From assembly GCA_944388995.1 (NCBI GenBank), contig CALXKN010000008.1, positions 17,160 to 81,159 on the forward strand: DNA of 64,000 nucleotides, in the 5' to 3' direction. Both the position numbers and the translations under genes were made by a program. How positions within the stretch are numbered: position 1 is the stretch's first letter; each line of letters opens with the position of its first letter. This DNA comes from an uncultured Spirochaetota bacterium (lineage in GTDB: Bacteria > Spirochaetota > Spirochaetia > JAFGXN01). This document shows, piece after piece, positions 55,225 through 64,000 of this stretch. The notes under the pieces are model-generated. The model was not told the origin of the DNA and made no database searches. It worked only from the letters and a program-made list of their open reading frames with translations.

Positions 55225-55253
55225 ATAGTAAAAGAAAGCCGCCGTCCTGTCAA
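55225..55253 (-). promoter_or_regulatory. sigma70-type promoter abutting the start codon of the SBP gene (leaderless geometry)
   Basis: On the minus strand the sequence is TTGACA, 17 nt, TACTAT, GGCGGC, then ATG (55218). No Shine-Dalgarno is present. Confidence 0.5.
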
Positions 55254-55254
55254 C

Positions 55255-55421
55255 CTTTTCGTTTTTTGGGCGCGCGCCCCTGCGGGGCGCCGGGCTTTCC
55301 GCTGCAATTCGCAGCCTCCCTGCGCCTTCACCGCGGCAAAGCTGCCGCTTTGCCCTGCGCCTTCTCTCCGTCGGCAGCTCATTTCCGCTTCAATCCCTCG
55401 CGCCTTCGGCAAGGTGCTGCG
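55255..55421. repeat. GC-rich structured repeat, copy A (167 bp)
   Basis: Identical to 56426..56591 apart from one extra T. It contains the hairpins GCGCCCC-TGC-GGGGCGC, GCTGC-AATTC-GCAGC and GCGGCA-AAGC-TGCCGC, plus internal sub-repeats (TTTCCGCTnCAAT, CCTGCGCCTTC). Confidence 0.9.
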
Positions 55422-55631
55422 GAAATCGGCATTTTATTGTTTTAGTGTAAAAATGGGAACTTCCGAAAACAGTCAACCGTTTTTCGGAAAAATAACTGCC
55501 CTAAACGTATTTTTGTGTTATAATAACTCCAATAAAAATTTCGTATGGCAAACACAGCAAAAGCAAAACCCGAAAAAAACGCCGATTAAAACCGGAGCGG
55601 AAGATTCGGGAGAAACTTGGAGCGATCGGGT

Positions 55632-55922
55632 ATGAGCTGTAATCTTCCTGAAAGCGTGGTTTTCGATATTGAACGATTCGCAAAGAAAAACAAGATTAAA
55701 AAGGTCGTTCTGTTTGGCTCCCGCGCGAGGGGCAATCATTCGGAACGAAGCGACATTGATTTGGCGGTCAGCGGTGGAAACGCGGCGGATTTTTATTACG
55801 ACGTCAATGAAGAAGCGCGGACTCTTTTAATTTTTGATGTGGTCAATCTGGACGGACCGGTCAGCGGCGAACTGCGCGCCGAAATAGAAAAGGACGGAGT
55901 TTTACTCTATGAAGAAATTTGA
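55632..55922 (+). CDS. minimal nucleotidyltransferase (MNT), antitoxin partner of HEPN (HI0073-like)
   Basis: LFGSRARGNHSERSDIDLAV carries the GSxxRG...DxD NTase motif. The ATG at 55632 is used, whereas the track uses an upstream TTG. Confidence 0.85.
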   Translation: MSCNLPESVVFDIERFAKKNKIKKVVLFGSRARGNHSERSDIDLAVSGGNAADFYYDVNEEARTLLIFDVVNLDGPVSGELRAEIEKDGVLLYEEI

Positions 55923-56304
55923 CAATTTTTGCAAAGCGCTTTCGAATTTGCGGGAAGGATTGCAGCTTGAAGAACCGTATTCTGTCGTCGAACGGACGGG
56001 CATCATCGGGCTGTTTGAAATTTGCTTTGAGCAGGCATGGAAGCTGATGAAAGCGGTTTTGGAAGAGCACGGCAGGACAATCGACCGCGTCGGTTCCCCG
56101 AAAGTTGTCATTCAGCTTGCATATCAGAGCGGGATGATTGACGACAGCGAAAAATGGCTTTCCCTGCTCAGAGATCGAAATATCCTTGCTCACACCTACA
56201 GCGACGAAGATTCGCTTGCCGTGATTCGAACGTTAAAGACGGACTACGAGCCCTTGTTCGCCACCCTCAAAGAAGAGATTGAAACGCGCCGGCTTTCGGC
56301 GTAA
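55909..56304 (+). CDS. HEPN-domain toxin / nucleotidyltransferase substrate-binding protein (HI0074-like)
   Basis: 131 aa. It overlaps the MNT gene by 14 nt and carries the RNILAH Rx4H HEPN motif. Confidence 0.85.
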   Translation: MKKFDNFCKALSNLREGLQLEEPYSVVERTGIIGLFEICFEQAWKLMKAVLEEHGRTIDRVGSPKVVIQLAYQSGMIDDSEKWLSLLRDRNILAHTYSDEDSLAVIRTLKTDYEPLFATLKEEIETRRLSA

Positions 56305-56425
56305 AGCGGAGGCGCGAAACAACTGAGTCCGGTATGAAAGTAGAAGAAATGGGAGCGAAAACTCTTTCAATCGCCACTGATTCTGCCAGCATCTTTACAT
56401 TTGGCTCCGCCCCCCCTCGCTGAAT

Positions 56426-56591
56426 CTTTTCGTTTTTTGGGCGCGCGCCCCTGCGGGGCGCCGGGCTTTCCGCTGCAATTCGCAGCCTCCCGCGCCTTCA
56501 CCGCGGCAAAGCTGCCGCTTTGCCCTGCGCCTTCTCTCCGTCGGCAGCTCATTTCCGCTTCAATCCCTCGCGCCTTCGGCAAGGTGCTGCG
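56426..56591. repeat. GC-rich structured repeat, copy B (166 bp)
   Basis: A direct repeat of 55255..55421 in the same orientation, on the other side of the MNT/HEPN pair. Confidence 0.9.
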
Positions 56592-56655
56592 AAAGAGGCG
56601 TCTGAAAACTATAAATATGAGAACAATCTCATTTAAACCTCATCCATTTTTATCT

Positions 56656-59541
56656 TCAGCAGAAATGCGCCATATCGCGCGGATAATACTTGCAGTCGTG
56701 CAGTTCCGTGTCGTCAAGCCCCAGCGCCTTTACCAGGGCAGCAGACGCTATGCACCAGTACCCGCGGTACTGGTTCTTTTTCAAGTCAAATTTTGTTATA
56801 AGCCCATCAGTCTTCGTGTGAATCCACTGTCTTTTAAGATACCGTTTTAACCGCTCAACAGCCGCCGCTTTATTCTCTTTTGAAAGCAGTACCACCTCAT
56901 ATACCGCATTGGAATATTTCGGACAGCAGAGCTTTTCCGTGCGTATCTGCCAGGATGAGTCCAGCGTCTGCATAAGGAAATCCAGATAAAAATCCCGCTG
57001 TTCCGATTTTTGTAACAATTTTCGATAGTCATCCAGAAATTCAGTCCTGTTAAAAAGCATAATCAAGTACAGAACAGTTTCCATATCTTCATAATTATCA
57101 TTGCCGTCCTGTGCGTCTATCAAATGACGCAAAATCAGGTCTACTTCGGGAAGCAGCTCATGCATATCTAGCCCTAAGGAATATCCTGTATAAAATTTGT
57201 AAAATGCATAAGTATATATTTGATATTTAAACGCTCTTATGTCCGATTCTGCCTGATGTTCATCAGTCTCAATATTATGATGATGATACGTTTGCAGTAT
57301 TTCTTTCAGCTTTTGGGAATCTTTCTTGAATCTTTCGTCAAAATATTCCTGGGGTTTGACTTTATCCCTCATCATTCTTACCCGGGGCGGAAGTTTTTCC
57401 CGCTCCTCCTCCGTAAGAAATTGCGACAGTTCAACTAAAAAGGGCTCTATAAACTCCGACATGAGTTTCGCTTTATTCCCGGCTGAGTGATCATAAGGTA
57501 TTTCAATTGCCGATGTCCGCCGTTTCTCATCCTTCCACAAGCGTCCTATTTTAATAAATGAACCGCCTTTCTCAAATATGTACAACGATATAATCAGTGT
57601 GCAGTCTTCATACTCACATTCTATATAATCTTGCTCCCCCAAGCAGTAATCTCTGTAGGTAAGATTCCTCAAAGTGGTTATTATCCAGGGTATCCACTCT
57701 TTTTTGATGACAACACTATCCCATGACTGCCATGACCCGGTACCGAAACGGCTGCCGGTTCTGGTGTTGATTCGTAGTTCGCCTTTGGGACTCCAGGGCG
57801 TGGGAAGTTTTTTCCGTTCTTCTTCAGGAAGAAATTGTGACAAGGCCACTAAGAAGGGTTCTATAAATTCCGACATGATTTTCAAGTCGTTGTCCGATTC
57901 TTCAAAATTAAATTCGAAACGGGTATAACGCCACTTTGATGTCAGGGTATAACTCTGCTCATTTTTTGCATGCCAAGGAAAATAAGGTATTTCAAGTGCC
58001 GGCGATATCTTCTTTTCATCCTTCCACATGGGAAATATTTTTATATAGGAATACCCATCCCCTATAGGACAGATACTTAATGTTAATTGGCACGTTCCCC
58101 ATTTATTTATGATGCTTTCAACTCCTGTTTGATAATTATCAACACTAAGATTTCTCAATGTGCTTATTATCCAGGGTATCCGGTTTTTTTGTATAACAAT
58201 ACTTTTCTGCTGCCCGCCGCCGAATGTACCGGTTCTTTTTCCGTTAATCCGTAATTCATCGTTATCTAATTCCTCGAAGCTGTATTCAAAATCGGCATTC
58301 AGAGTTTTTTTGCTTTGATATTTTGTTATCTTCTCTATTTTGGCTACTATCGATTCGTCGTCCGACTTATCGGTTTCGCCTGCATACCAATCTTTGCCTT
58401 CGAGCCATACCCCGAACCAGAAAGGAAGATCCCCCCAAGGTCTTTGACAGAGTTCTTTCTTTTCGTTGACACTCCAGGGGGGCGACAGTTTACCCCTTTC
58501 TTCTTCCGTGAGAAACTGCGACAATGCAACCAGAAACGGCTCTATAAATTCCGACATTAATTTTGTTTCTTTCCGGGATACATAGGGTATTTCAATATTC
58601 CATGAACTCTTATTTTCATTTTTCCAGACAGGATAAATTTTGATATAGGAATAATCAAAGGGTACTACATTTATAATAAAACTTAAATTACAGTAACCGT
58701 ATTCATATACGAGAGTTTGCGGGGTGTTATAATCGTCGATAGTGGCATTTCTTAGTGTGGTAATGATCAAAGGTATCCACGCTTTTTTTATGATAATACT
58801 TTCCCATTGTCCCCTGCCGAATGAATCTGTTCGCTTTGCATTGATTTCCAACTCGTCATCATTTAATTCTTCATTGTCAGCTTTTTCCTCAAAATAAAAT
58901 TCGAAATGAACATTCCCGCCCTTACTGATCAGGTATTCTTTTTCTGCCAGTCCGTATTGTGTTATACCGGTCATTGCTTTGAAAAAATTGAGGGAACCGC
59001 TTTCCTTATCGGCAAAAATGATGTTCTGTTTTTTGTTTTCCCTCCAGGGAGGCGGAAGTTGTGTTCTTTCTTCTTCGGTAAGGAATTGTGCCAATTCAAC
59101 CAAAACAGGTTCGATAAATTCCGCCATTAACCTGCTTTTATCCCAGGGTAGATATGGTATTTCAATAAACGGTGTCGTTTTTTCCTTCGGTTCCTTCCAT
59201 ATGGGCATTATTTGAAGGGTCGCATAATCTTTGGCAGATGGTAAAAACTCCAGATTGACTTGACATTCTTCATATTCGTGAACGATATGTCTGTTCCAAA
59301 TCCCTTCCGGAAAGTTGATGTCGTAATCCTCAAAAGGAAGGGTTCTCAGTGTGGTGATAATCCGGGAAATCCACGCTTTTTTTATGACGATACAGTAATA
59401 CAAAGGCATACGTTCCGCTTCATCCAACAATGGAAAGGTTATTTTTTCGAAAATCCGTATTTCGTCGTTGTCCGATTCCTCAAAATGAAATTCAAAGGTA
59501 TCGGATATTTCGGCATCTCCCCTTCTGCCTGTAATGAACAT
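56656..59541 (-). CDS. 961-aa fusion protein: four tandem copies of an unrecognised ~150-190 aa module plus a C-terminal PoNi-like (DUF1910/DUF1911) immunity domain
   Basis: Repeats lie at about aa 15-166, 212-356, 417-523 (+541-583) and 588-719. They share FEFxFEExDNDELRIN, IIKKAWIPxIITTLRN, YIKIxPxWKDEKK, IEIPY and KLMSEFIEPFLVxLSQFLTEEERxKLPPPW. Residues 723-961 begin MRDKVKPQEYF and end YRGYWCIASAALVKALGLDDTELHDCKYYPRDMAHFC. Confidence 0.65.
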   Translation of the reverse strand: MFITGRRGDAEISDTFEFHFEESDNDEIRIFEKITFPLLDEAERMPLYYCIVIKKAWISRIITTLRTLPFEDYDINFPEGIWNRHIVHEYEECQVNLEFLPSAKDYATLQIMPIWKEPKEKTTPFIEIPYLPWDKSRLMAEFIEPVLVELAQFLTEEERTQLPPPWRENKKQNIIFADKESGSLNFFKAMTGITQYGLAEKEYLISKGGNVHFEFYFEEKADNEELNDDELEINAKRTDSFGRGQWESIIIKKAWIPLIITTLRNATIDDYNTPQTLVYEYGYCNLSFIINVVPFDYSYIKIYPVWKNENKSSWNIEIPYVSRKETKLMSEFIEPFLVALSQFLTEEERGKLSPPWSVNEKKELCQRPWGDLPFWFGVWLEGKDWYAGETDKSDDESIVAKIEKITKYQSKKTLNADFEYSFEELDNDELRINGKRTGTFGGGQQKSIVIQKNRIPWIISTLRNLSVDNYQTGVESIINKWGTCQLTLSICPIGDGYSYIKIFPMWKDEKKISPALEIPYFPWHAKNEQSYTLTSKWRYTRFEFNFEESDNDLKIMSEFIEPFLVALSQFLPEEERKKLPTPWSPKGELRINTRTGSRFGTGSWQSWDSVVIKKEWIPWIITTLRNLTYRDYCLGEQDYIECEYEDCTLIISLYIFEKGGSFIKIGRLWKDEKRRTSAIEIPYDHSAGNKAKLMSEFIEPFLVELSQFLTEEEREKLPPRVRMMRDKVKPQEYFDERFKKDSQKLKEILQTYHHHNIETDEHQAESDIRAFKYQIYTYAFYKFYTGYSLGLDMHELLPEVDLILRHLIDAQDGNDNYEDMETVLYLIMLFNRTEFLDDYRKLLQKSEQRDFYLDFLMQTLDSSWQIRTEKLCCPKYSNAVYEVVLLSKENKAAAVERLKRYLKRQWIHTKTDGLITKFDLKKNQYRGYWCIASAALVKALGLDDTELHDCKYYPRDMAHFC

Positions 59542-59780: not shown

Positions 59781-60486
59781 CTAACAGAAATGGGTCATAT
59801 CGTAGGGATAGTATTTACAGTCTTTCAGTTCCGTATCGTCAAGTTTGAGGGCTTTTACCAAAGCGGCGGCGGCGATGCACCAATACCCCCGGTACCACCC
59901 TATTTTCAGATCCCGGTTGGTTATAACACCTTCGGTTAATGACATAAACCACTGCCTTTTAAGATACCTCTTTAACCGCTGGACGGCTTCCGCCTTGTTT
60001 TCTTTTGACAGCATTACCACCTCGTATACCGAATTGGTCTCTTTGGGGCAACGAAGTTTTTCCGTACTTATCTGCCATGTGGAGTCTACTATCTGTACAA
60101 GATAATCCAGGTAAAAATCCCGCATTTTCGATTTTTGTAATAACTCCTTATATTCATCCAGAAATTCTGTCCGGTTAAAAAGAATGATTAAGTATATAAT
60201 CATTTCCATATCATCATAACCTCTGTCCCTTTCTCTCGTTGTATCAATCAAATTTCTTATGATAAGGTCTACTTCGGGAAGCAGCTCATTCATACCAAGC
60301 CCCAGGGAATAGCCTGCATAAAATTTACAAGCTGCTTCCATATATATGTGATATTTAAACGACCATACATTATATTTTTCCGGATGGCTTATTCTCTTCA
60401 TATTTACTCATCCGTTCAGCAAGATCAGACGCATCCTTATTATATCTTTCCCTAAAATATTCTTCTGTTTTTATGGTGTCTCTCAT
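59781..60486 (-). pseudogene. PoNi-like (DUF1910/DUF1911) immunity gene, apparently split by a 1-nt frameshift; the 206-aa ORF 59781..60401 may still be expressed
   Basis: ORF 59781..60401 aligns with aa 770-961 of the 961-aa protein. The missing N-terminus (MRDTIKTEEYFRERYNKDASDLAERMSKY) is encoded at 60486..60400 in another frame and stops at 60370. Confidence 0.6.
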
Positions 60487-60489
60487 CTG

Positions 60490-60630
60490 TTATTCCTTGT
60501 GTATTTTGTAAATTTTTGGTTTATTCTCGTTATACATAACATTGCCATTTTCATCAAGTTGGTAATATGTTACTTTTCCTCCCTTCGGAACGCCTGCGGC
60601 GTGGCTACAATCCTTTGTGCGAGAAGATTT
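60490..60630 (-). pseudogene. start-less 46-codon remnant, probably the C-terminal tail of a toxin, ending 3 nt before the PoNi-like ATG
   Basis: The open frame KSSRTKDCSHAAGVPKGGKVTYYQLDENGNVMYNENKPKIYKIHKE* has no ATG/GTG/TTG. It begins right after TGA TAA at the edge of the 58-bp repeat. Confidence 0.4.
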
Positions 60631-60642
60631 TTATCAATGGTG

Positions 60643-60700
60643 TCCGTACACACCCATTGATGTTGTCAAAGAACTCCTTCTGTACGGAGATAGGGGGAGG
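60643..60700. repeat. 58-bp junction repeat, copy 1
   Basis: TCCGTACACACCCATTGATGTTGTCAAAGAACTCCTTCTGTACGGAGATAGGGGGAGG is identical to 63943..64000. It contains the 8-bp inverted arms TCCGTACA and TGTACGGA separated by 30 nt. Confidence 0.9.
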
Positions 60701-60701
60701 G

Positions 60702-60929
60702 TTATTCAAAAGTTATTACCATATGCGAACCTGCCGTTTTTTCGGTTACTTTCTGTATAATCTCTTTTTTGTCATCTTCAGTTAATGGCTCGTTTTCTGG
60801 AACAAGCCAATTTTTCATTGAACTTTTATAACAGACAAAACCGCCTACTATCATTTCGCCTGCGATTCTCGCAGTTCTGCCATCGAGTTCTACATCTATG
60901 TATGTGTTTGTTCCGGTTATTTTTGTCAT
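60702..60929 (-). CDS. small hypothetical protein (75 aa) in the immunity-gene array
   Basis: The ORF lies 9 nt downstream of the DUF600 gene. Its first 10 codons are duplicated at 62353..62324. Confidence 0.5.
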   Translation of the reverse strand: MTKITGTNTYIDVELDGRTARIAGEMIVGGFVCYKSSMKNWLVPENEPLTEDDKKEIIQKVTEKTAGSHMVITFE

Positions 60930-61036
60930 ATATTAATCCTATGCATTATCCCATTCGTCTTGAAGAGCCTGATCCCATTCAAAGGTCATATCAAAGTGAC
61001 CGTTCTTTTCAAGGGTGTAAATAGCTTTGTTCCATT
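60899..61036. repeat. 138-bp segmental duplication, copy 1
   Basis: Matches 62323..62460. The first 64 bp are identical and the rest is roughly 85 percent identical by eye. It spans the 3' end of a DUF600 gene, the spacer and the 5' end of the 75-aa gene. Confidence 0.85.
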
Positions 61037-61271
61037 GTGCAAAATGTAACTCTTTTGCACTATTATGAAATTTTATTAAATCAATTTTTGTTTCTCGATT
61101 AAGTGCTAAGTTTAAAGCATTTTTCCATTCTCCATTAATCTGATATTTTGCATTCGTACCAATATATTTATCACTACATTCAATATTCAGTTCAATTTTA
61201 TCCCAAGAGGAATCAATACTATCATTCAATTGCGAACCAATATTTTTATATATATCTTCAATATTTTTCAT
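60939..61271 (-). CDS. DUF600 / YezG / EsaG-type immunity protein
   Basis: 110 aa, starting 11 nt after the nuclease-domain stop with an AGGAG RBS. The overall pattern (acidic, WDKIELNIE...W..A.Y.L...G.F...F) fits DUF600 antitoxins of EsaD/YeeF nucleases. It is a paralog of 62363..62686. Confidence 0.7.
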   Translation of the reverse strand: MKNIEDIYKNIGSQLNDSIDSSWDKIELNIECSDKYIGTNAKYQINGEWKNALNLALNRETKIDLIKFHNSAKELHFAQWNKAIYTLEKNGHFDMTFEWDQALQDEWDNA

Positions 61272-61282
61272 AAATACTCCTA

Positions 61283-61648
61283 TTAATTTAAGAAGAACAA
61301 ATTTTCTGTTTTTTCTATTTTTCCATCCGATGTTTTTATAATGTATGTTACATCAAAATCTGTCGGTCTTAGATTATCAGCATAGTTTATTTTTATATCA
61401 ACTTCAACCTTTTTTCCCTCTGAAAGTGCATCGTTCCATTTTTTTTCCATGGTTTTCCATTCACCATTATTTAGTGTGGCGGTTTGTGGAACATAATTTA
61501 TTTGTTCTCCAGGACCATTGAAAATTCTTGCAATAATATGTCCGCCCTGGTCATCACCTTTAATACCATCTTTTATATCAACTGATTTTCCTTGTTGATA
61601 AACATTTCTGTCTTTTGTTTCAAGTTTTAATTCTCCGCTTACTTTGTT
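61283..61648 (-). pseudogene. orphan, start-less C-terminal nuclease toxin domain (EsaD/YeeF-type, Endonuclease_NS_2-like)
   Basis: Manual translation gives NKVSGELKLETKDRNVYQQGKSVDIKDGIKGDDQGGHIIARIFNGPGEQINYVPQTATLNNGEWKTMEKKWNDALSEGKKVEVDIKINYADNLRPTDFDVTYIIKTSDGKIEKTENLFFLN*. The frame opens after a TAA at 61649-61651 and has no ATG/GTG/TTG until codon 68, so it is absent from the ORF track. Confidence 0.7.
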
Positions 61649-61731
61649 TTACAACTATTTTCTTTTACTTGCAATTGTTCCAAAACGATTAAGTGCAGCA
61701 ACAATATCTTCATAATCAGCATCTATTTCAT

Positions 61732-62262
61732 CTAACTGTCCCAGATTTCCTTAAATTTTAAACCTTTGATACTGTTTTTCTTAACAATATCTATAAACTC
61801 ATCTGTTACAAAATAATCTCGAATAATTAATTGATTTTGTAGTTTAACTTGAAAAAGAGGTGGATAATTGTTTTCCTTAAAATAATATTGCTCAACACCT
61901 AAAATATCATTCTCAAAATACTTATATTTAGTTTTTTTTCGATCTAAGCAGTCCAAAACAGTTAAATTATTTAATAGTACAAAATCGTCATTAAGCGGAA
62001 CAAATCTTATATTTATTTGAGAAATGTCAGAAAGTACTGCCATAAATTTTTTATTTATGAAGAATCCTCTACAATCATAACATTCACAAATATCCCCTGC
62101 AGGATTATTAGAATCTCTATCGTATTCTAATTGAAAATCAGAAGGAATGCTTATTTCTATACCTTTATTAAACTGACGTAAAATTTTTCTATCAGTTTCT
62201 TCGTTTTTTATATAGCATCCTTTGTAATTATCAATATCTGTTTCTAAAATGTATATTTTCAT
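61732..62262 (-). CDS. hypothetical 176-aa protein, immunity-protein-like by context (family not firmly recognised)
   Basis: An AT-rich ORF within the immunity array. Its size and composition resemble DUF1629/Imm-type proteins, but no diagnostic motif was identified. Confidence 0.45.
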   Translation of the reverse strand: MKIYILETDIDNYKGCYIKNEETDRKILRQFNKGIEISIPSDFQLEYDRDSNNPAGDICECYDCRGFFINKKFMAVLSDISQINIRFVPLNDDFVLLNNLTVLDCLDRKKTKYKYFENDILGVEQYYFKENNYPPLFQVKLQNQLIIRDYFVTDEFIDIVKKNSIKGLKFKEIWDS

Positions 62263-62299
62263 ATATCCCCCCCCTAATTGTGAATTTTTAAGAAACCAC

Positions 62300-62353
62300 T
62301 CAATAATTCCTTTCGGATTGTTTGTATGTGTTTGTTCCGGTTATTTTTGTCAT
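62300..62353 (-). pseudogene. 17-codon relic of the 75-aa gene
   Basis: MTKITGTNTYKQSERNY*. The first 10 codons are identical to 60929..60900, after which the sequence diverges and stops. Confidence 0.6.
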
Positions 62354-62460
62354 ATATTAATCCTATGCATTATCCCATTCGTCTTGGAGAGTTTGATCCC
62401 ATTCAAATGTCATATCAAAATGACCATTCCTTTCAAGAGAGTAAACAGCTTTGTTCCATT
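62323..62460. repeat. 138-bp segmental duplication, copy 2
   Basis: See 60899..61036. Confidence 0.85.
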
Positions 62461-62686
62461 TATGCTCAGGCGACATAGATTCTTGAAGTTCAAAAACGCT
62501 ATCCATTAAAGTATTTACAGTTAATAAAGGAAACTTTAATTCTTTTTTTTCAAACGATGATAAAGTATATTCTGCCTGAAATGAACACATTTTATTTAGA
62601 CTTGATTCTATTTTTACAGTCACTTTTTCCCATTTACCGGAAATATTATCTTGAACCGCCTTGCCTAATTCTTTATATAAATCCAT
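62363..62686 (-). CDS. DUF600 / YezG / EsaG-type immunity protein, second paralog
   Basis: 107 aa. The C-terminal KWNKAVYSLERNGHFDMTFEWDQTLQDEWDNA is nearly identical to the C-terminus of 60939..61271. Confidence 0.7.
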   Translation of the reverse strand: MDLYKELGKAVQDNISGKWEKVTVKIESSLNKMCSFQAEYTLSSFEKKELKFPLLTVNTLMDSVFELQESMSPEHKWNKAVYSLERNGHFDMTFEWDQTLQDEWDNA

Positions 62687-62732
62687 AGCATCTCCATTAA
62701 TTGTTGAATATTTTTTTGAATAGTTGGCTCAT

Positions 62733-63842
62733 TTATTTCTCTTTATTTAAAATAAACAGATACTCAGAGACGTGTATATTACGGTTATTCAAATTTCTGC
62801 TTCCCCGGAATGTATTATAAGTCATTTCAACGGTTTTCAGTTTTCCGTAGTGTTCCAGCATTGTTTTCATTTGCTCAAAAGTAATAAATCCTTCAGAATT
62901 ATAAGAGATAATGACAAACTTTGAATCAATTTTATCTATGATTTTTTCCATGGATTTTAAGGCTGAATAAGGTTTGTTGAATTCCGAGCGGTTCCAATCC
63001 TGAGTTATCCCTGAAACTTTACTGATTTCAGCATCCAGCCTGTTCTTTATGATAAGATTCAGCATAAAATAATTTGAACCATAGGGATGCTGGTTATACG
63101 GGGGATCCAGATAAGTAATATCTATTTTTTTTAATTCCCCGGCAAGTTCCACAGCATCTTTTTTATAGATTTTAACCTTTGAATTGAAATTGCTTAAAAC
63201 CGGCTCTTTCAGTTCTATTTTTCCAAAAATGCGGGTTAAAGCGTTTTTCCCGGCAGCGCCGAAACATCCGATTCCGGTATTTTTGTCCTTGTAAAACCCT
63301 TTGAAAACCCCGCTTGTATTGACATGAACCGAAGCCTCCGTTACGAGCGGCGCTAAAAAAAATTTTTTCATGTCTTCTTCCTGCACCACTTTATCAATCA
63401 GACTGCGGTAAGTGTCGATTAACAGAGCGTTCTCATGGGTATAAAAAACCCTTTCTCCTCTTTGAATATTTCCGTCATCCTGAGGGGCATAATTTTTTGT
63501 GATAATTCTCGGTTCTTTTTTGCTGCGGCACATTTCTTCTATTATTGATTTATATTCCCGCCATTTTTCATGCGGAAAATCTTTTTTGTCAGTCAGATAG
63601 CATTCATTGATGAGGCGGGAATATTCTTCCAGATCATTGGCAATTAAAACACTGCTGTATTTTTTCAGCATCCGGGCAACAATTCCCGAACCGGAGAAAA
63701 TATCCGCACAAACAAGTTTTTCTTTTCCCAATAAACCGGCAATTTTTTTGACTTCTTCTTCTATATTCCTGATAAGCTGCCGTTTGTTCCTGATATAAGT
63801 AATGATCTGTGCAGTAAGATATTCTTTATTTTCTTCTTTCAT
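62733..63842 (-). CDS. N6-adenine DNA methyltransferase (SAM motif then DPPY), no cognate endonuclease visible
   Basis: DIFSGSGIVARML (FxGxG, motif I) near aa 48 and YLDPPYNQHPYGSNY (motif IV) near aa 244. Length is 369 aa. Confidence 0.8.
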   Translation of the reverse strand: MKEENKEYLTAQIITYIRNKRQLIRNIEEEVKKIAGLLGKEKLVCADIFSGSGIVARMLKKYSSVLIANDLEEYSRLINECYLTDKKDFPHEKWREYKSIIEEMCRSKKEPRIITKNYAPQDDGNIQRGERVFYTHENALLIDTYRSLIDKVVQEEDMKKFFLAPLVTEASVHVNTSGVFKGFYKDKNTGIGCFGAAGKNALTRIFGKIELKEPVLSNFNSKVKIYKKDAVELAGELKKIDITYLDPPYNQHPYGSNYFMLNLIIKNRLDAEISKVSGITQDWNRSEFNKPYSALKSMEKIIDKIDSKFVIISYNSEGFITFEQMKTMLEHYGKLKTVEMTYNTFRGSRNLNNRNIHVSEYLFILNKEK

Positions 63843-63877: not shown

Positions 63878-64000
63878 TTATTCTATGCTTTTTGACAGAC
63901 CTTTATACTCAGTATCCCTCTCCGCAAAAATCAACCCGGATTTCCGTACACACCCATTGATGTTGTCAAAGAACTCCTTCTGTACGGAGATAGGGGGAGG
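63878..64000 (-). CDS. 3' end of a gene whose body lies beyond the window edge; its last 40 codons include the 58-bp repeat
   Basis: Only one minus-strand frame is open from 64000: PPPISVQKEFFDNINGCVRKSGLIFAERDTEYKGLSKSIE*. It stops 35 nt before the methyltransferase ATG. Confidence 0.45.
   Translation of the reverse strand, partial: PPPISVQKEFFDNINGCVRKSGLIFAERDTEYKGLSKSIE
63943..64000. repeat. 58-bp junction repeat, copy 2 (may extend past the window)
   Basis: Identical to 60643..60700. Confidence 0.9.

Follow-up and report, generated by a model that had tools for sequence, protein, structure and literature searches.

A 64,000-nt stretch of DNA from an uncultured Spirochaetota bacterium (GTDB lineage Bacteria; Spirochaetota; Spirochaetia; JAFGXN01; assembly GCA_944388995.1, contig CALXKN010000008.1, positions 17,160 to 81,159; hereafter the window) carries on its minus strand an open reading frame (ORF) of 206 amino acids (aa) related to PoNi immunity proteins, and just upstream of it a short reading frame without a start codon. 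This raises the question if the ORF encodes a working immunity protein or is part of a broken gene, and if the start-less frame is what has remained of the matching toxin. We consider it highly probable that the two represent an orphan PoNe/PoNi toxin-immunity module in a polyimmunity locus, in which both functions have been lost, that of the toxin first. The parts of the proposed module are as follows.

59781..60401, minus strand: 3' part of the putative PoNi pseudogene, the 206-aa ORF (Pfam PoNi_C match; homologue alignment)
60370..60486, minus strand: 5' part of the putative PoNi pseudogene, a 38-aa ORF (translation; alignment with the intact gene of contig L001)
60393..60394, minus strand: site of the presumably inactivating 2-nt deletion (DNA alignment versus L001; protein alignment)
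60490..60576, minus strand: putative remnant of a PoNe-type DNase toxin, consisting of the last 28 codons (KVTYYQLDENGNVMYNENKPKIYKIHKE) and TAA, without start codon (protein P0121, contig L063, long upstream ORFs)

The 206-aa ORF contains a PoNi_C domain (PF08929; 72.5 bits, 6e-20, Pfam cut-off 25). It is 65% identical to the PoNi domain at the C-terminus of a 961-aa protein encoded 240 bp downstream, a paralogy already proposed in the initial annotation. On the basis of its domain content and homologues, the ORF can be assigned to a PoNi (DUF1910/DUF1911) immunity gene. The second domain of this family, PoNi_N (PF08928), gives no match in the 206-aa ORF, but is recovered with 28.4 bits (cut-off 22.4) once the 2-nt deletion is repaired; the repaired protein scores 71.3 bits for PoNi_C. 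The PoNi_N domain is encoded, but divided over two frames. The ATG at 60486 starts the sequence MRDTIKTEEYFRERYNKDASDLAERMSKYEENKPSGKI, followed by a stop codon, in a frame different from that of the 206-aa ORF, which is +1 relative to the 38-aa ORF and overlaps it by 32 nt. The 38-aa ORF comprises native codons 1-31, seven out-of-frame codons and a TAA stop, while in the 206-aa ORF the three residues MKR precede residues 33-235 of the native protein, which has 235 aa. The missing N-terminus is encoded upstream, from 60486 in another frame, as annotated; according to the homologue alignment it amounts to 32 residues and not to the ~45 assumed before.

Homologues were searched with the joined reading frame of the two ORFs, which yielded 150 relatives, of which 120 were listed. 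Among these 120, the closest full-length homologues have about 235 aa and align with the query over its whole length; the best identity of intact homologues to the joined frame is 94% by BLASTP and 96% in the alignment. For example, P0001 to P0005 are intact 235-aa proteins with 94-96% identity to the 206-aa ORF. Residues M1, R2 and D3 are invariant across 29 PoNi homologues, at identities down to 40%. Structural modelling with AlphaFold was done on P0001, which is 96% identical to the pseudogene product. In this model (predicted local distance difference test, pLDDT, 85.8; predicted template modelling score, pTM, 0.86) a confident first helix spans residues 8-34 (27 residues), and the best match in the PDB is PA2201 (2fef; TM score 0.66, probability 1.00). 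A sequence profile also matches the solved DUF1911 proteins 9waq and 9vy2 in the PDB. What the 206-aa ORF has lost is the entire first helix (residues 8-34) together with the invariant N-terminal M-R-D. These comparisons indicate that the native form of the immunity protein is 235 aa and not 206 aa long; the case, considered at the outset, that the 206-aa form is the conserved native gene fails on the length of the homologues. The named PoNi relatives come from Treponema. Tandem PoNi-PoNi genes occur in related metagenomes (P0052, 293 aa; L032), as homogeneous PoNi arrays and as fusions. P0052 is a fusion in which one PoNi runs, at its C-terminus, in frame into the next (...YYPYDLVHYKESQMRDTV...).

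The lesion could be located by comparison with contig L001, where the PoNi gene is intact. Relative to L001, which reads GAAGAG-GT followed by AATAAGCC, the window lacks the dinucleotide GT between 60394 and 60393 (DNA alignment). The intact genes have GAAGAG-GT-AATAAG at this site; the spanning sequence is GAAGAGAATAAG in the deletion allele and GAAGAGGTAATAAG / GAGGTAAT in the intact allele. The deletion falls at codon 32 of the PoNi gene. At the protein level, all intact homologues read ...MSKYEE-V-ISHPEKYNVW..., whereas in the window MSKYEE and ISHPEKYNVW are encoded in different frames. A single-nucleotide indel in a run of five A residues had been suspected as the cause; this A5 run (60379..60375) is the same in the window and in the intact L001 gene, and the GT deletion lies 14 nt upstream of it. 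The 206-aa and 38-aa ORFs should accordingly be merged into one pseudogene in the annotation.

An exact-sequence look-up located the overlapping pair of 206-aa and 38-aa ORFs on seven contigs, four of which were read (samples BRZ_CI, BRZ_DP, BRZ_EK and BRZ_BR). One of the four is 99.99% identical to the window. The other three differ from it by 14-16 single-nucleotide polymorphisms (SNPs) over 2.3-4.5 kb, all elsewhere than at the lesion, and on account of these SNPs they are not the same molecule re-assembled. Because a 2-nt deletion in non-repetitive sequence recurs in independent assemblies of slightly different strains, we regard the frameshift as a fixed mutation and not as a sequencing artefact. 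The broken allele is common to several closely related strains.

We turn to the start-less frame. This 46-codon frame (60630..60493, minus strand) closes with a TAA three nt before the ATG at 60486, as had been noticed initially, and had been read as the tail of the cognate toxin. For its last 28 codons (60576..60493) this interpretation is supported by P0121 and L063; the first 18 codons belong to an inter-cassette element described below and not to a toxin. In an exhaustive phmmer scan of 1.84 billion proteins, the C-terminus of P0121 shares 27 of 28 residues with the tail. Contig L063, which encodes P0121, agrees with the window in ~97% of bases from AGGAAAAGTAAC / AGGAAAAGTAACATATTAC onward and has the TAA-CAG-ATG junction (TAA-CAG-ATG-AGAGA) in common with it. 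A word-indexed search of 5.8 billion proteins with the 46-aa tail gave no candidate, and Pfam gave no match for it. At its beginning (positions 1-110), L063 reads ...EADDKF, a stop codon and then MLLKKLDAEDVY, as compared with ...GADDIIITLLKKLDAEDVY in L036, an apparent frameshift near the 5' end of the P0121 gene. L063 is a Logan assembly, so this frameshift could be an assembly error.

Which kind of toxin the tail belonged to is indicated by related loci. In four metagenome contigs with PoNi relatives, long ORFs stop short of the PoNi start codon by 2-6 nt (L036, at least 451 codons; L045, 584; L035, at least 245; L043, 144). The C-termini of these ORFs (...RVDSVAAKIDNTGKLTYYQLDNYGKV...PIIYNINKE and stop) align with the window tail, and the four share the pattern ...TGK(L/V)TYYQLD..GKV...IYNINKE before the stop codon. 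The published PoNe motif is Kx3GExnGIDx2YxnYx3ExK, and 90% of PoNe genes are located immediately upstream of a DUF1911 gene (PMC6688995). L036, L035 and P0121 carry K-x3-G-E ... G-I-D-x2-Y ... F-x3-D-x-K, which is KSNYGE ... GIDGIY ... FIIVDSK in L036, with FIIVESK as last block in L035. Full-length relatives of the tail have KSNYGE ... GIDGIY ... FIIVD(A/S)K, the last block being an F/D variant. The first block is looser in L045 (HGNFGE) and absent from the truncated L043. The 28-codon remnant lies downstream of the PoNe motif and contains none of it and no catalytic residues; it descends from a PoNe-motif gene without being a PoNe domain itself. Judged by alignment and gene order, the tail is a genuine remnant of a PoNe-type toxin gene. 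The original idea of a degraded toxin-immunity pair is supported by the intact 235-aa homologues and by the PoNe-motif ORFs found directly upstream of PoNi homologues. The 46-codon frame as such does not merit annotation as a gene.

No intact PoNe toxin was found in the 64-kb window. For the full-length upstream toxins, Pfam reported no family above cut-off, only DUF4112 below threshold, and PoNe thus appears not to be modelled in Pfam. The neighbourhoods of the PoNi homologues P0001, P0020, P0010, P0099, P0115 and P0113 are immunity arrays with no adjacent full-length toxin. Two further matches of the tail, P0126 and P0127, were rejected as homologues: they are repeat proteins with a G-x-x-T-Y-x-x-D-x-x-G-N-like unit and were taken as a compositional resemblance. 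Longer multi-stretch matches appear to be of the same kind and were treated likewise. The fused protein P0052 had hinted that the HKE ending of the tail might be a PoNi C-terminus; the shared K-E codons are better explained by an AAGGA ribosome-binding site.

Where the toxin remnant begins, it adjoins an element that is also found in other genomes.

60576..60701, minus strand: conserved inter-cassette element of ~125 nt, beginning right after an Imm74 stop codon (six contigs, L023-L028)
63943..64000, minus strand: further copy of the element, limited to its initial 58 nt by the window end (window repeat; L020 match)

In the window the element reads CCCTCCCCCTATCTCCGTACAGAAGGAGYTCTTTGACAACATCAATGGGTGTGTACGGACACCATTGATAAAAATCTTCTCGCACAAAGGATTGTAGCCACGCCGCAGGCGTTCCGAAGGGAGGAA. 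Its core, CTCCGTACAGAAGGAGYTCTTTGACAAC, was found in six contigs (L023-L028) in a scan of one genome per species. Five of the six hosts are metagenome-assembled genomes (MAGs) of Treponema or other spirochaetes; the sixth is binned as Mucispirillum, which is taken to be a mis-binning. The 5' edge of the copies is constant and directly follows a stop codon, often of an Imm74 gene. Their 3' extent varies from 38 to ~125 nt, with unrelated sequences following, and the copies never lie within a long ORF. A 58-bp repeat, at which the toxin had been proposed to be truncated exactly, does exist (60643-60700 and 63943-64000, 100% identity; 0 of 100 window shuffles gave any match), but the toxin breakpoint is located ~65 nt downstream of it. 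The repeat is the 5' part of the element, the part that is common to both window copies. Its length of 58 bp does not describe the repeated unit either: the element measures ~125 nt, and the duplication extends over at least 281 bp, because L020 (positions 1-281, 98.9% identical to window 60923-60643) places a second Imm74 gene just beyond 64000.

At the junction, the last five nt of the element overlap the toxin remnant in the sequence AGGAA (60580..60576). Identity to L063 starts at AGGAA, and upstream of AGGAA the window matches the element. This 5-nt microhomology suggests illegitimate recombination. The element does not fold significantly better than shuffled sequence (z = -1.6; equally good folds in 11 of 200 shuffles), Rfam gave no match over 55-64 kb apart from sub-threshold noise, and promoter-like and terminator-like sites in the element are at chance level. 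We also considered that the 58-bp repeat might be a conserved junction within the coding sequence of a large polymorphic toxin (VENN/Rhs-core type); this was rejected, as in all copies the frame is open for at most eight codons upstream and the repeat always follows a stop codon.

Several observations weigh against a module that is dead on both sides. On the side of the immunity gene, we infer the loss of function from sequence, and the 206-aa ORF remains open. As the solved DUF1911 structures can be aligned from about residue 43 onward only, the conservation of helix 1 may overstate how essential it is. The pseudogene branch carries one synonymous and two non-synonymous lineage-specific changes, with the 206-aa ORF still open; these three are too few to decide on relaxed selection. 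Either the gene was inactivated recently, or some constraint still acts on the truncated product. The few changes do not allow the loss to be dated, yet are consistent with a recent one. On the side of the toxin, the PoNe assignment draws on the published motif and on gene order, there being no Pfam model. P0121 as called is N-terminally incomplete, L063 has only 942 nt, and the gene is apparently frameshifted upstream. The complete toxins of L036 and L045 are ~50% identical to the tail, and no complete close relative of the tail was seen. A further point concerns the junction. In L013, a diverged tail, closest to an L038-type toxin, joins a shorter form of the element within ~6 nt of the same toxin position: in L013 (5860-6000) as in the window (60490-60700), the junction lies just before the T-Y-Y-x-L-D codons, with the element cut at ~nt 50 in L013 versus ~nt 125 in the window. 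Independent random deletions are not expected to coincide, so this weighs against a purely random deletion; the near-identical junctions hint at a preferred one.

The observations on the immunity gene bear on an explanation in which only the toxin is dead and translation from the internal ATG at 60401 gives a working, N-terminally truncated immunity protein. The frame is open over 206 codons and identical on the seven contigs, the whole PoNi_C domain is kept at 72.5 bits, PDB proteins of the DUF1911 family align from residue 43 only, and a weak GGAtGAG lies 6-12 nt upstream of this ATG. We still regard such a protein as improbable. The closest full-length homologues keep a complete N-terminus with M1-R2-D3 invariant, and the truncation removes the confidently predicted helix 1 of an all-helical bundle as well as the PoNi_N match. 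Moreover, the ATG at 60401 is located inside the upstream 38-aa ORF without a strong ribosome-binding site, and A232T, one of the two lineage-specific amino-acid changes, strikes a nearly invariant residue.

Much less credible is that ribosomes restore a full-length product by slipping into the +1 frame on the A5 run. In that case, the tRNA-Lys in the P site would shift from GGA-AAA-A onto the overlapping AAA that immediately precedes ATA-TAA, where the upstream frame closes, and the resulting protein would have 234 aa with a 7-residue substitution. The two frames do overlap by 32 nt, and GGAAAAATATAA in the overlap permits AAA-to-AAA re-pairing in the +1 frame directly before the stop codon. 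But the A5 run is unchanged in intact homologues and hence did not evolve for slippage, no stimulatory element is evident, the two-frame arrangement is conserved in no homologue, and relatives decay in other, unambiguous ways. Finally, that the gene is intact in the organism and the frameshift an error of sequencing or assembly, as single-genome frameshifts in draft or metagenome assemblies often are, is hardly conceivable for a lesion of 2 nt in non-repetitive sequence, without any homopolymer change, that recurs with the same ORF pair on seven contigs, the four read coming from four samples and three of them lying 14-16 SNPs from the window.

For the doubly inactivated module, the following history may be proposed. 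The ancestor, as reconstructed from homologous loci, would have had a gene for a PoNe-family PD-(D/E)xK DNase toxin, followed by TAA-CAG and the cognate 235-aa PoNi gene. The toxin gene was then lost except for its last 28 codons, and the remnant became joined to the element at AGGAA; the microhomology points to an illegitimate deletion or insertion and not to a site-specific cut. What was left at this stage would have been an orphan immunity gene, able to protect against the same toxin from neighbouring cells. Subsequently, the 2-nt deletion at codon 32 split the immunity gene into the 38-aa and 206-aa ORFs and presumably left it non-functional or at best badly impaired. Such a loss may be tolerated if the matching toxin is no longer met, or if the 961-aa protein, whose PoNi domain is intact, takes over its role.

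The module is part of a larger array. We interpret the region from 56.6 to 64 kb as a low-GC, scar-rich polyimmunity (orphan-immunity) locus in a Treponema-like gut spirochaete. Beyond 56.6 kb the window has genes on the minus strand only, and the GC content is 28-38% between 60 and 64 kb versus ~45% in the remainder of the window. Pfam assigns the immunity genes located between 56.6 and 62.7 kb to the families Imm74, YezG-like (two), Imm11-like and PoNi (two), all on the minus strand. Besides the module, the array comprises the following features.

56656..59541, minus strand: 961-aa polyimmunity protein (PoNi_N and PoNi_C at residues 725-957 by Pfam; repeat families D1, D3, D7 and D10)
60702..63842, minus strand: rest of the visible array (D12 methyltransferase, YezG-like, Imm74 5' fragment with AHH tail, Imm11-like, Endonuclea_NS_2 fragment, YezG-like, Imm74)
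62277-62362, minus strand: direct fusion of the initial 10 codons of an Imm74 gene with the final 17 of an AHH nuclease toxin (L028 comparison)
~61283-61615, minus strand: start-less Endonuclea_NS_2 toxin fragment of ~100 codons (DQGGH nuclease-like motif and Endonuclea_NS_2 C-terminus)

From upstream to downstream, the array starts with an Imm74 gene outside the window, followed by the first 58 nt of the element, the D12 DNA methyltransferase and a YezG-like gene. It continues with the Imm74/AHH fusion, the Imm11-like gene, the start-less Endonuclea_NS_2 fragment and a second YezG-like gene, and ends with Imm74, the full element, the PoNe tail, the frameshifted PoNi gene and the 961-aa protein. 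The latter consists of four tandem modules of ~190 aa without a Pfam family, followed by intact PoNi_N and PoNi_C domains; its PoNi domain is the paralogue mentioned above. The ~190-aa modules share a ...SEFIEPFLV.LSQFLTEEER.KL.PPW... motif. Chimeric relatives of the 961-aa protein are P0024 and P0110, and in L013 a 57-aa module fragment precedes the element.

The pattern of a toxin 3' stub next to the cognate immunity gene occurs three times in the array. The AHH tail (62327..62277) is 94% identical to the intact 286-aa AHH toxin of L028, and the Imm74/AHH fusion sits just upstream of the Imm11-like gene (61732-62262). Of the Endonuclea_NS_2 fragment, the last 55 codons alone form a called ORF, with a YezG-like immunity gene downstream; a trio of a 45/55-aa ORF, a 107-aa ORF and Imm74 is found again in L013-L015. 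In two other spirochaete genomes (L025 and L027), codons 113-235 are all that is left of the same PoNi gene, located behind an SH3b ORF, a case of independent decay. Erosion is a general trait of this locus and ordinary for such islands.

Directly after the partial copy of the element, at 62733-63842 (minus strand, ~30% GC), lies the gene for the D12-class N6-adenine DNA methyltransferase. No restriction enzyme gene is visible, and the methylase may be an orphan carried along with the array or provide immunity against a DNA-targeting toxin. Outside the array, a GC-rich direct repeat of ~175 bp (55252-55424 and 56423-56594, 98-99% identical) brackets a nucleotidyltransferase/HEPN toxin-antitoxin pair of the MNT/HepT-like type (55617-56304, plus strand). 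Each repeat has a sub-threshold match to the Flavo-1 RNA (21.6 bits, E 0.76). The arrangement resembles an inserted cassette or else a separate repeat family.

How does the locus compare with known systems? As in the PoNe/PoNi pairs described by Jana et al. (2019, PMC6688995), PoNi_N (DUF1910), here split between two frames, and PoNi_C (DUF1911) occur in the immunity gene, and in homologous loci the gene directly upstream carries the PoNe motif blocks. The placement agrees as well, with the tail ending 3 nt before the ATG and long toxin ORFs in the same order in L036, L035, L045 and L063; the predicted fold matches PA2201 (2fef). The differences are that the toxin is reduced to 28 codons here, the immunity gene is frameshifted and the host is a spirochaete. 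Furthermore, the toxins of the related loci have F-x3-D-x-K as last block, and Pfam detected no FIX, VgrG, PAAR or LXG marker.

With the heterogeneous polyimmunity loci of Zhang et al. (2012, PMC3482391), the array shares tandem, co-oriented, unrelated immunity families with short spacers, and a gene content that differs among related genomes. The definition of a polyimmunity protein given there fits the 961-aa protein with its four modules and PoNi domain. Polyimmunity loci were stated never to be interrupted by toxin genes or cassettes (PMC3482391), whereas the array described here keeps three toxin 3' remnants (PoNe, 60576..60493; AHH, 62327..62277; Endonuclea_NS_2, ~61615..61283) and includes a D12 DNA methyltransferase. 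Spirochaetes are not among the phyla listed for extended polyimmunity loci in that survey (PMC3482391).

A second point of reference are the acquired interbacterial defence (AID) and recombinase-associated AID (rAID-1) clusters of gut Bacteroidales, in which pseudogenised remnants and repetitive intergenic sequences have been described (Ross et al. 2019, bioRxiv 10.1101/471110). Common to these clusters and our array are low GC content, co-directional orphan immunity genes in a gut bacterium, remnants of immunity genes as pseudogenes, and a repeated intergenic sequence. A XerD-like tyrosine recombinase, which marks the 5' end of rAID-1 arrays, is not visible here; it has to be considered that the array leaves the window at 64000 and that contigs L019-L022 likewise break at or just beyond the repeat, short of the 5' end of the array. 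Unlike in rAID-1, the window has the element at only two boundaries, and six other spirochaete genomes have it at one each, while most spacers are without it; the host is a spirochaete and not a member of the Bacteroidales, and the toxins are not known type VI secretion system (T6SS) effectors. For these reasons, namely the recombinase end lying outside the window, the element being present at some boundaries only and the spirochaete host, we did not file the array under AID/rAID-1.

Orphan modules of contact-dependent growth inhibition (CDI) and Rhs systems keep a whole toxin domain and a stretch of homology to the main gene, and can hence be re-armed by recombination. In our case, the 28 codons left are devoid of catalytic residues, which makes re-arming impossible. 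Two features are shared with such orphan toxin-CT (C-terminal)/immunity modules (Koskiniemi et al. 2014, PMC3967940): toxin genes lacking the 5' end are followed by the cognate immunity gene, and several modules are arrayed in succession.

The findings reveal no new mechanism or principle; this is an ordinary kind of genomic decay. They provide a documented example of how an orphan-immunity island is built up and eroded, with a toxin stub formed at a microhomology and a 2-nt lesion in the immunity gene thereafter. In sister lineages, the same PoNi gene decays in different ways. For the gut Treponema-like spirochaetes, the picture is one of scar-rich polyimmunity arrays with a lineage-specific boundary element, which is the only lead with wider potential. 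In every case the element begins directly behind a stop codon, and the cassettes that come after it differ between spirochaete genomes. There is a slim chance that it is not just flanking DNA copied along passively but a site at which an integron-like system of gut Treponema would attach or capture immunity genes, and as such a spirochaete counterpart of rAID-1 in Bacteroidales.

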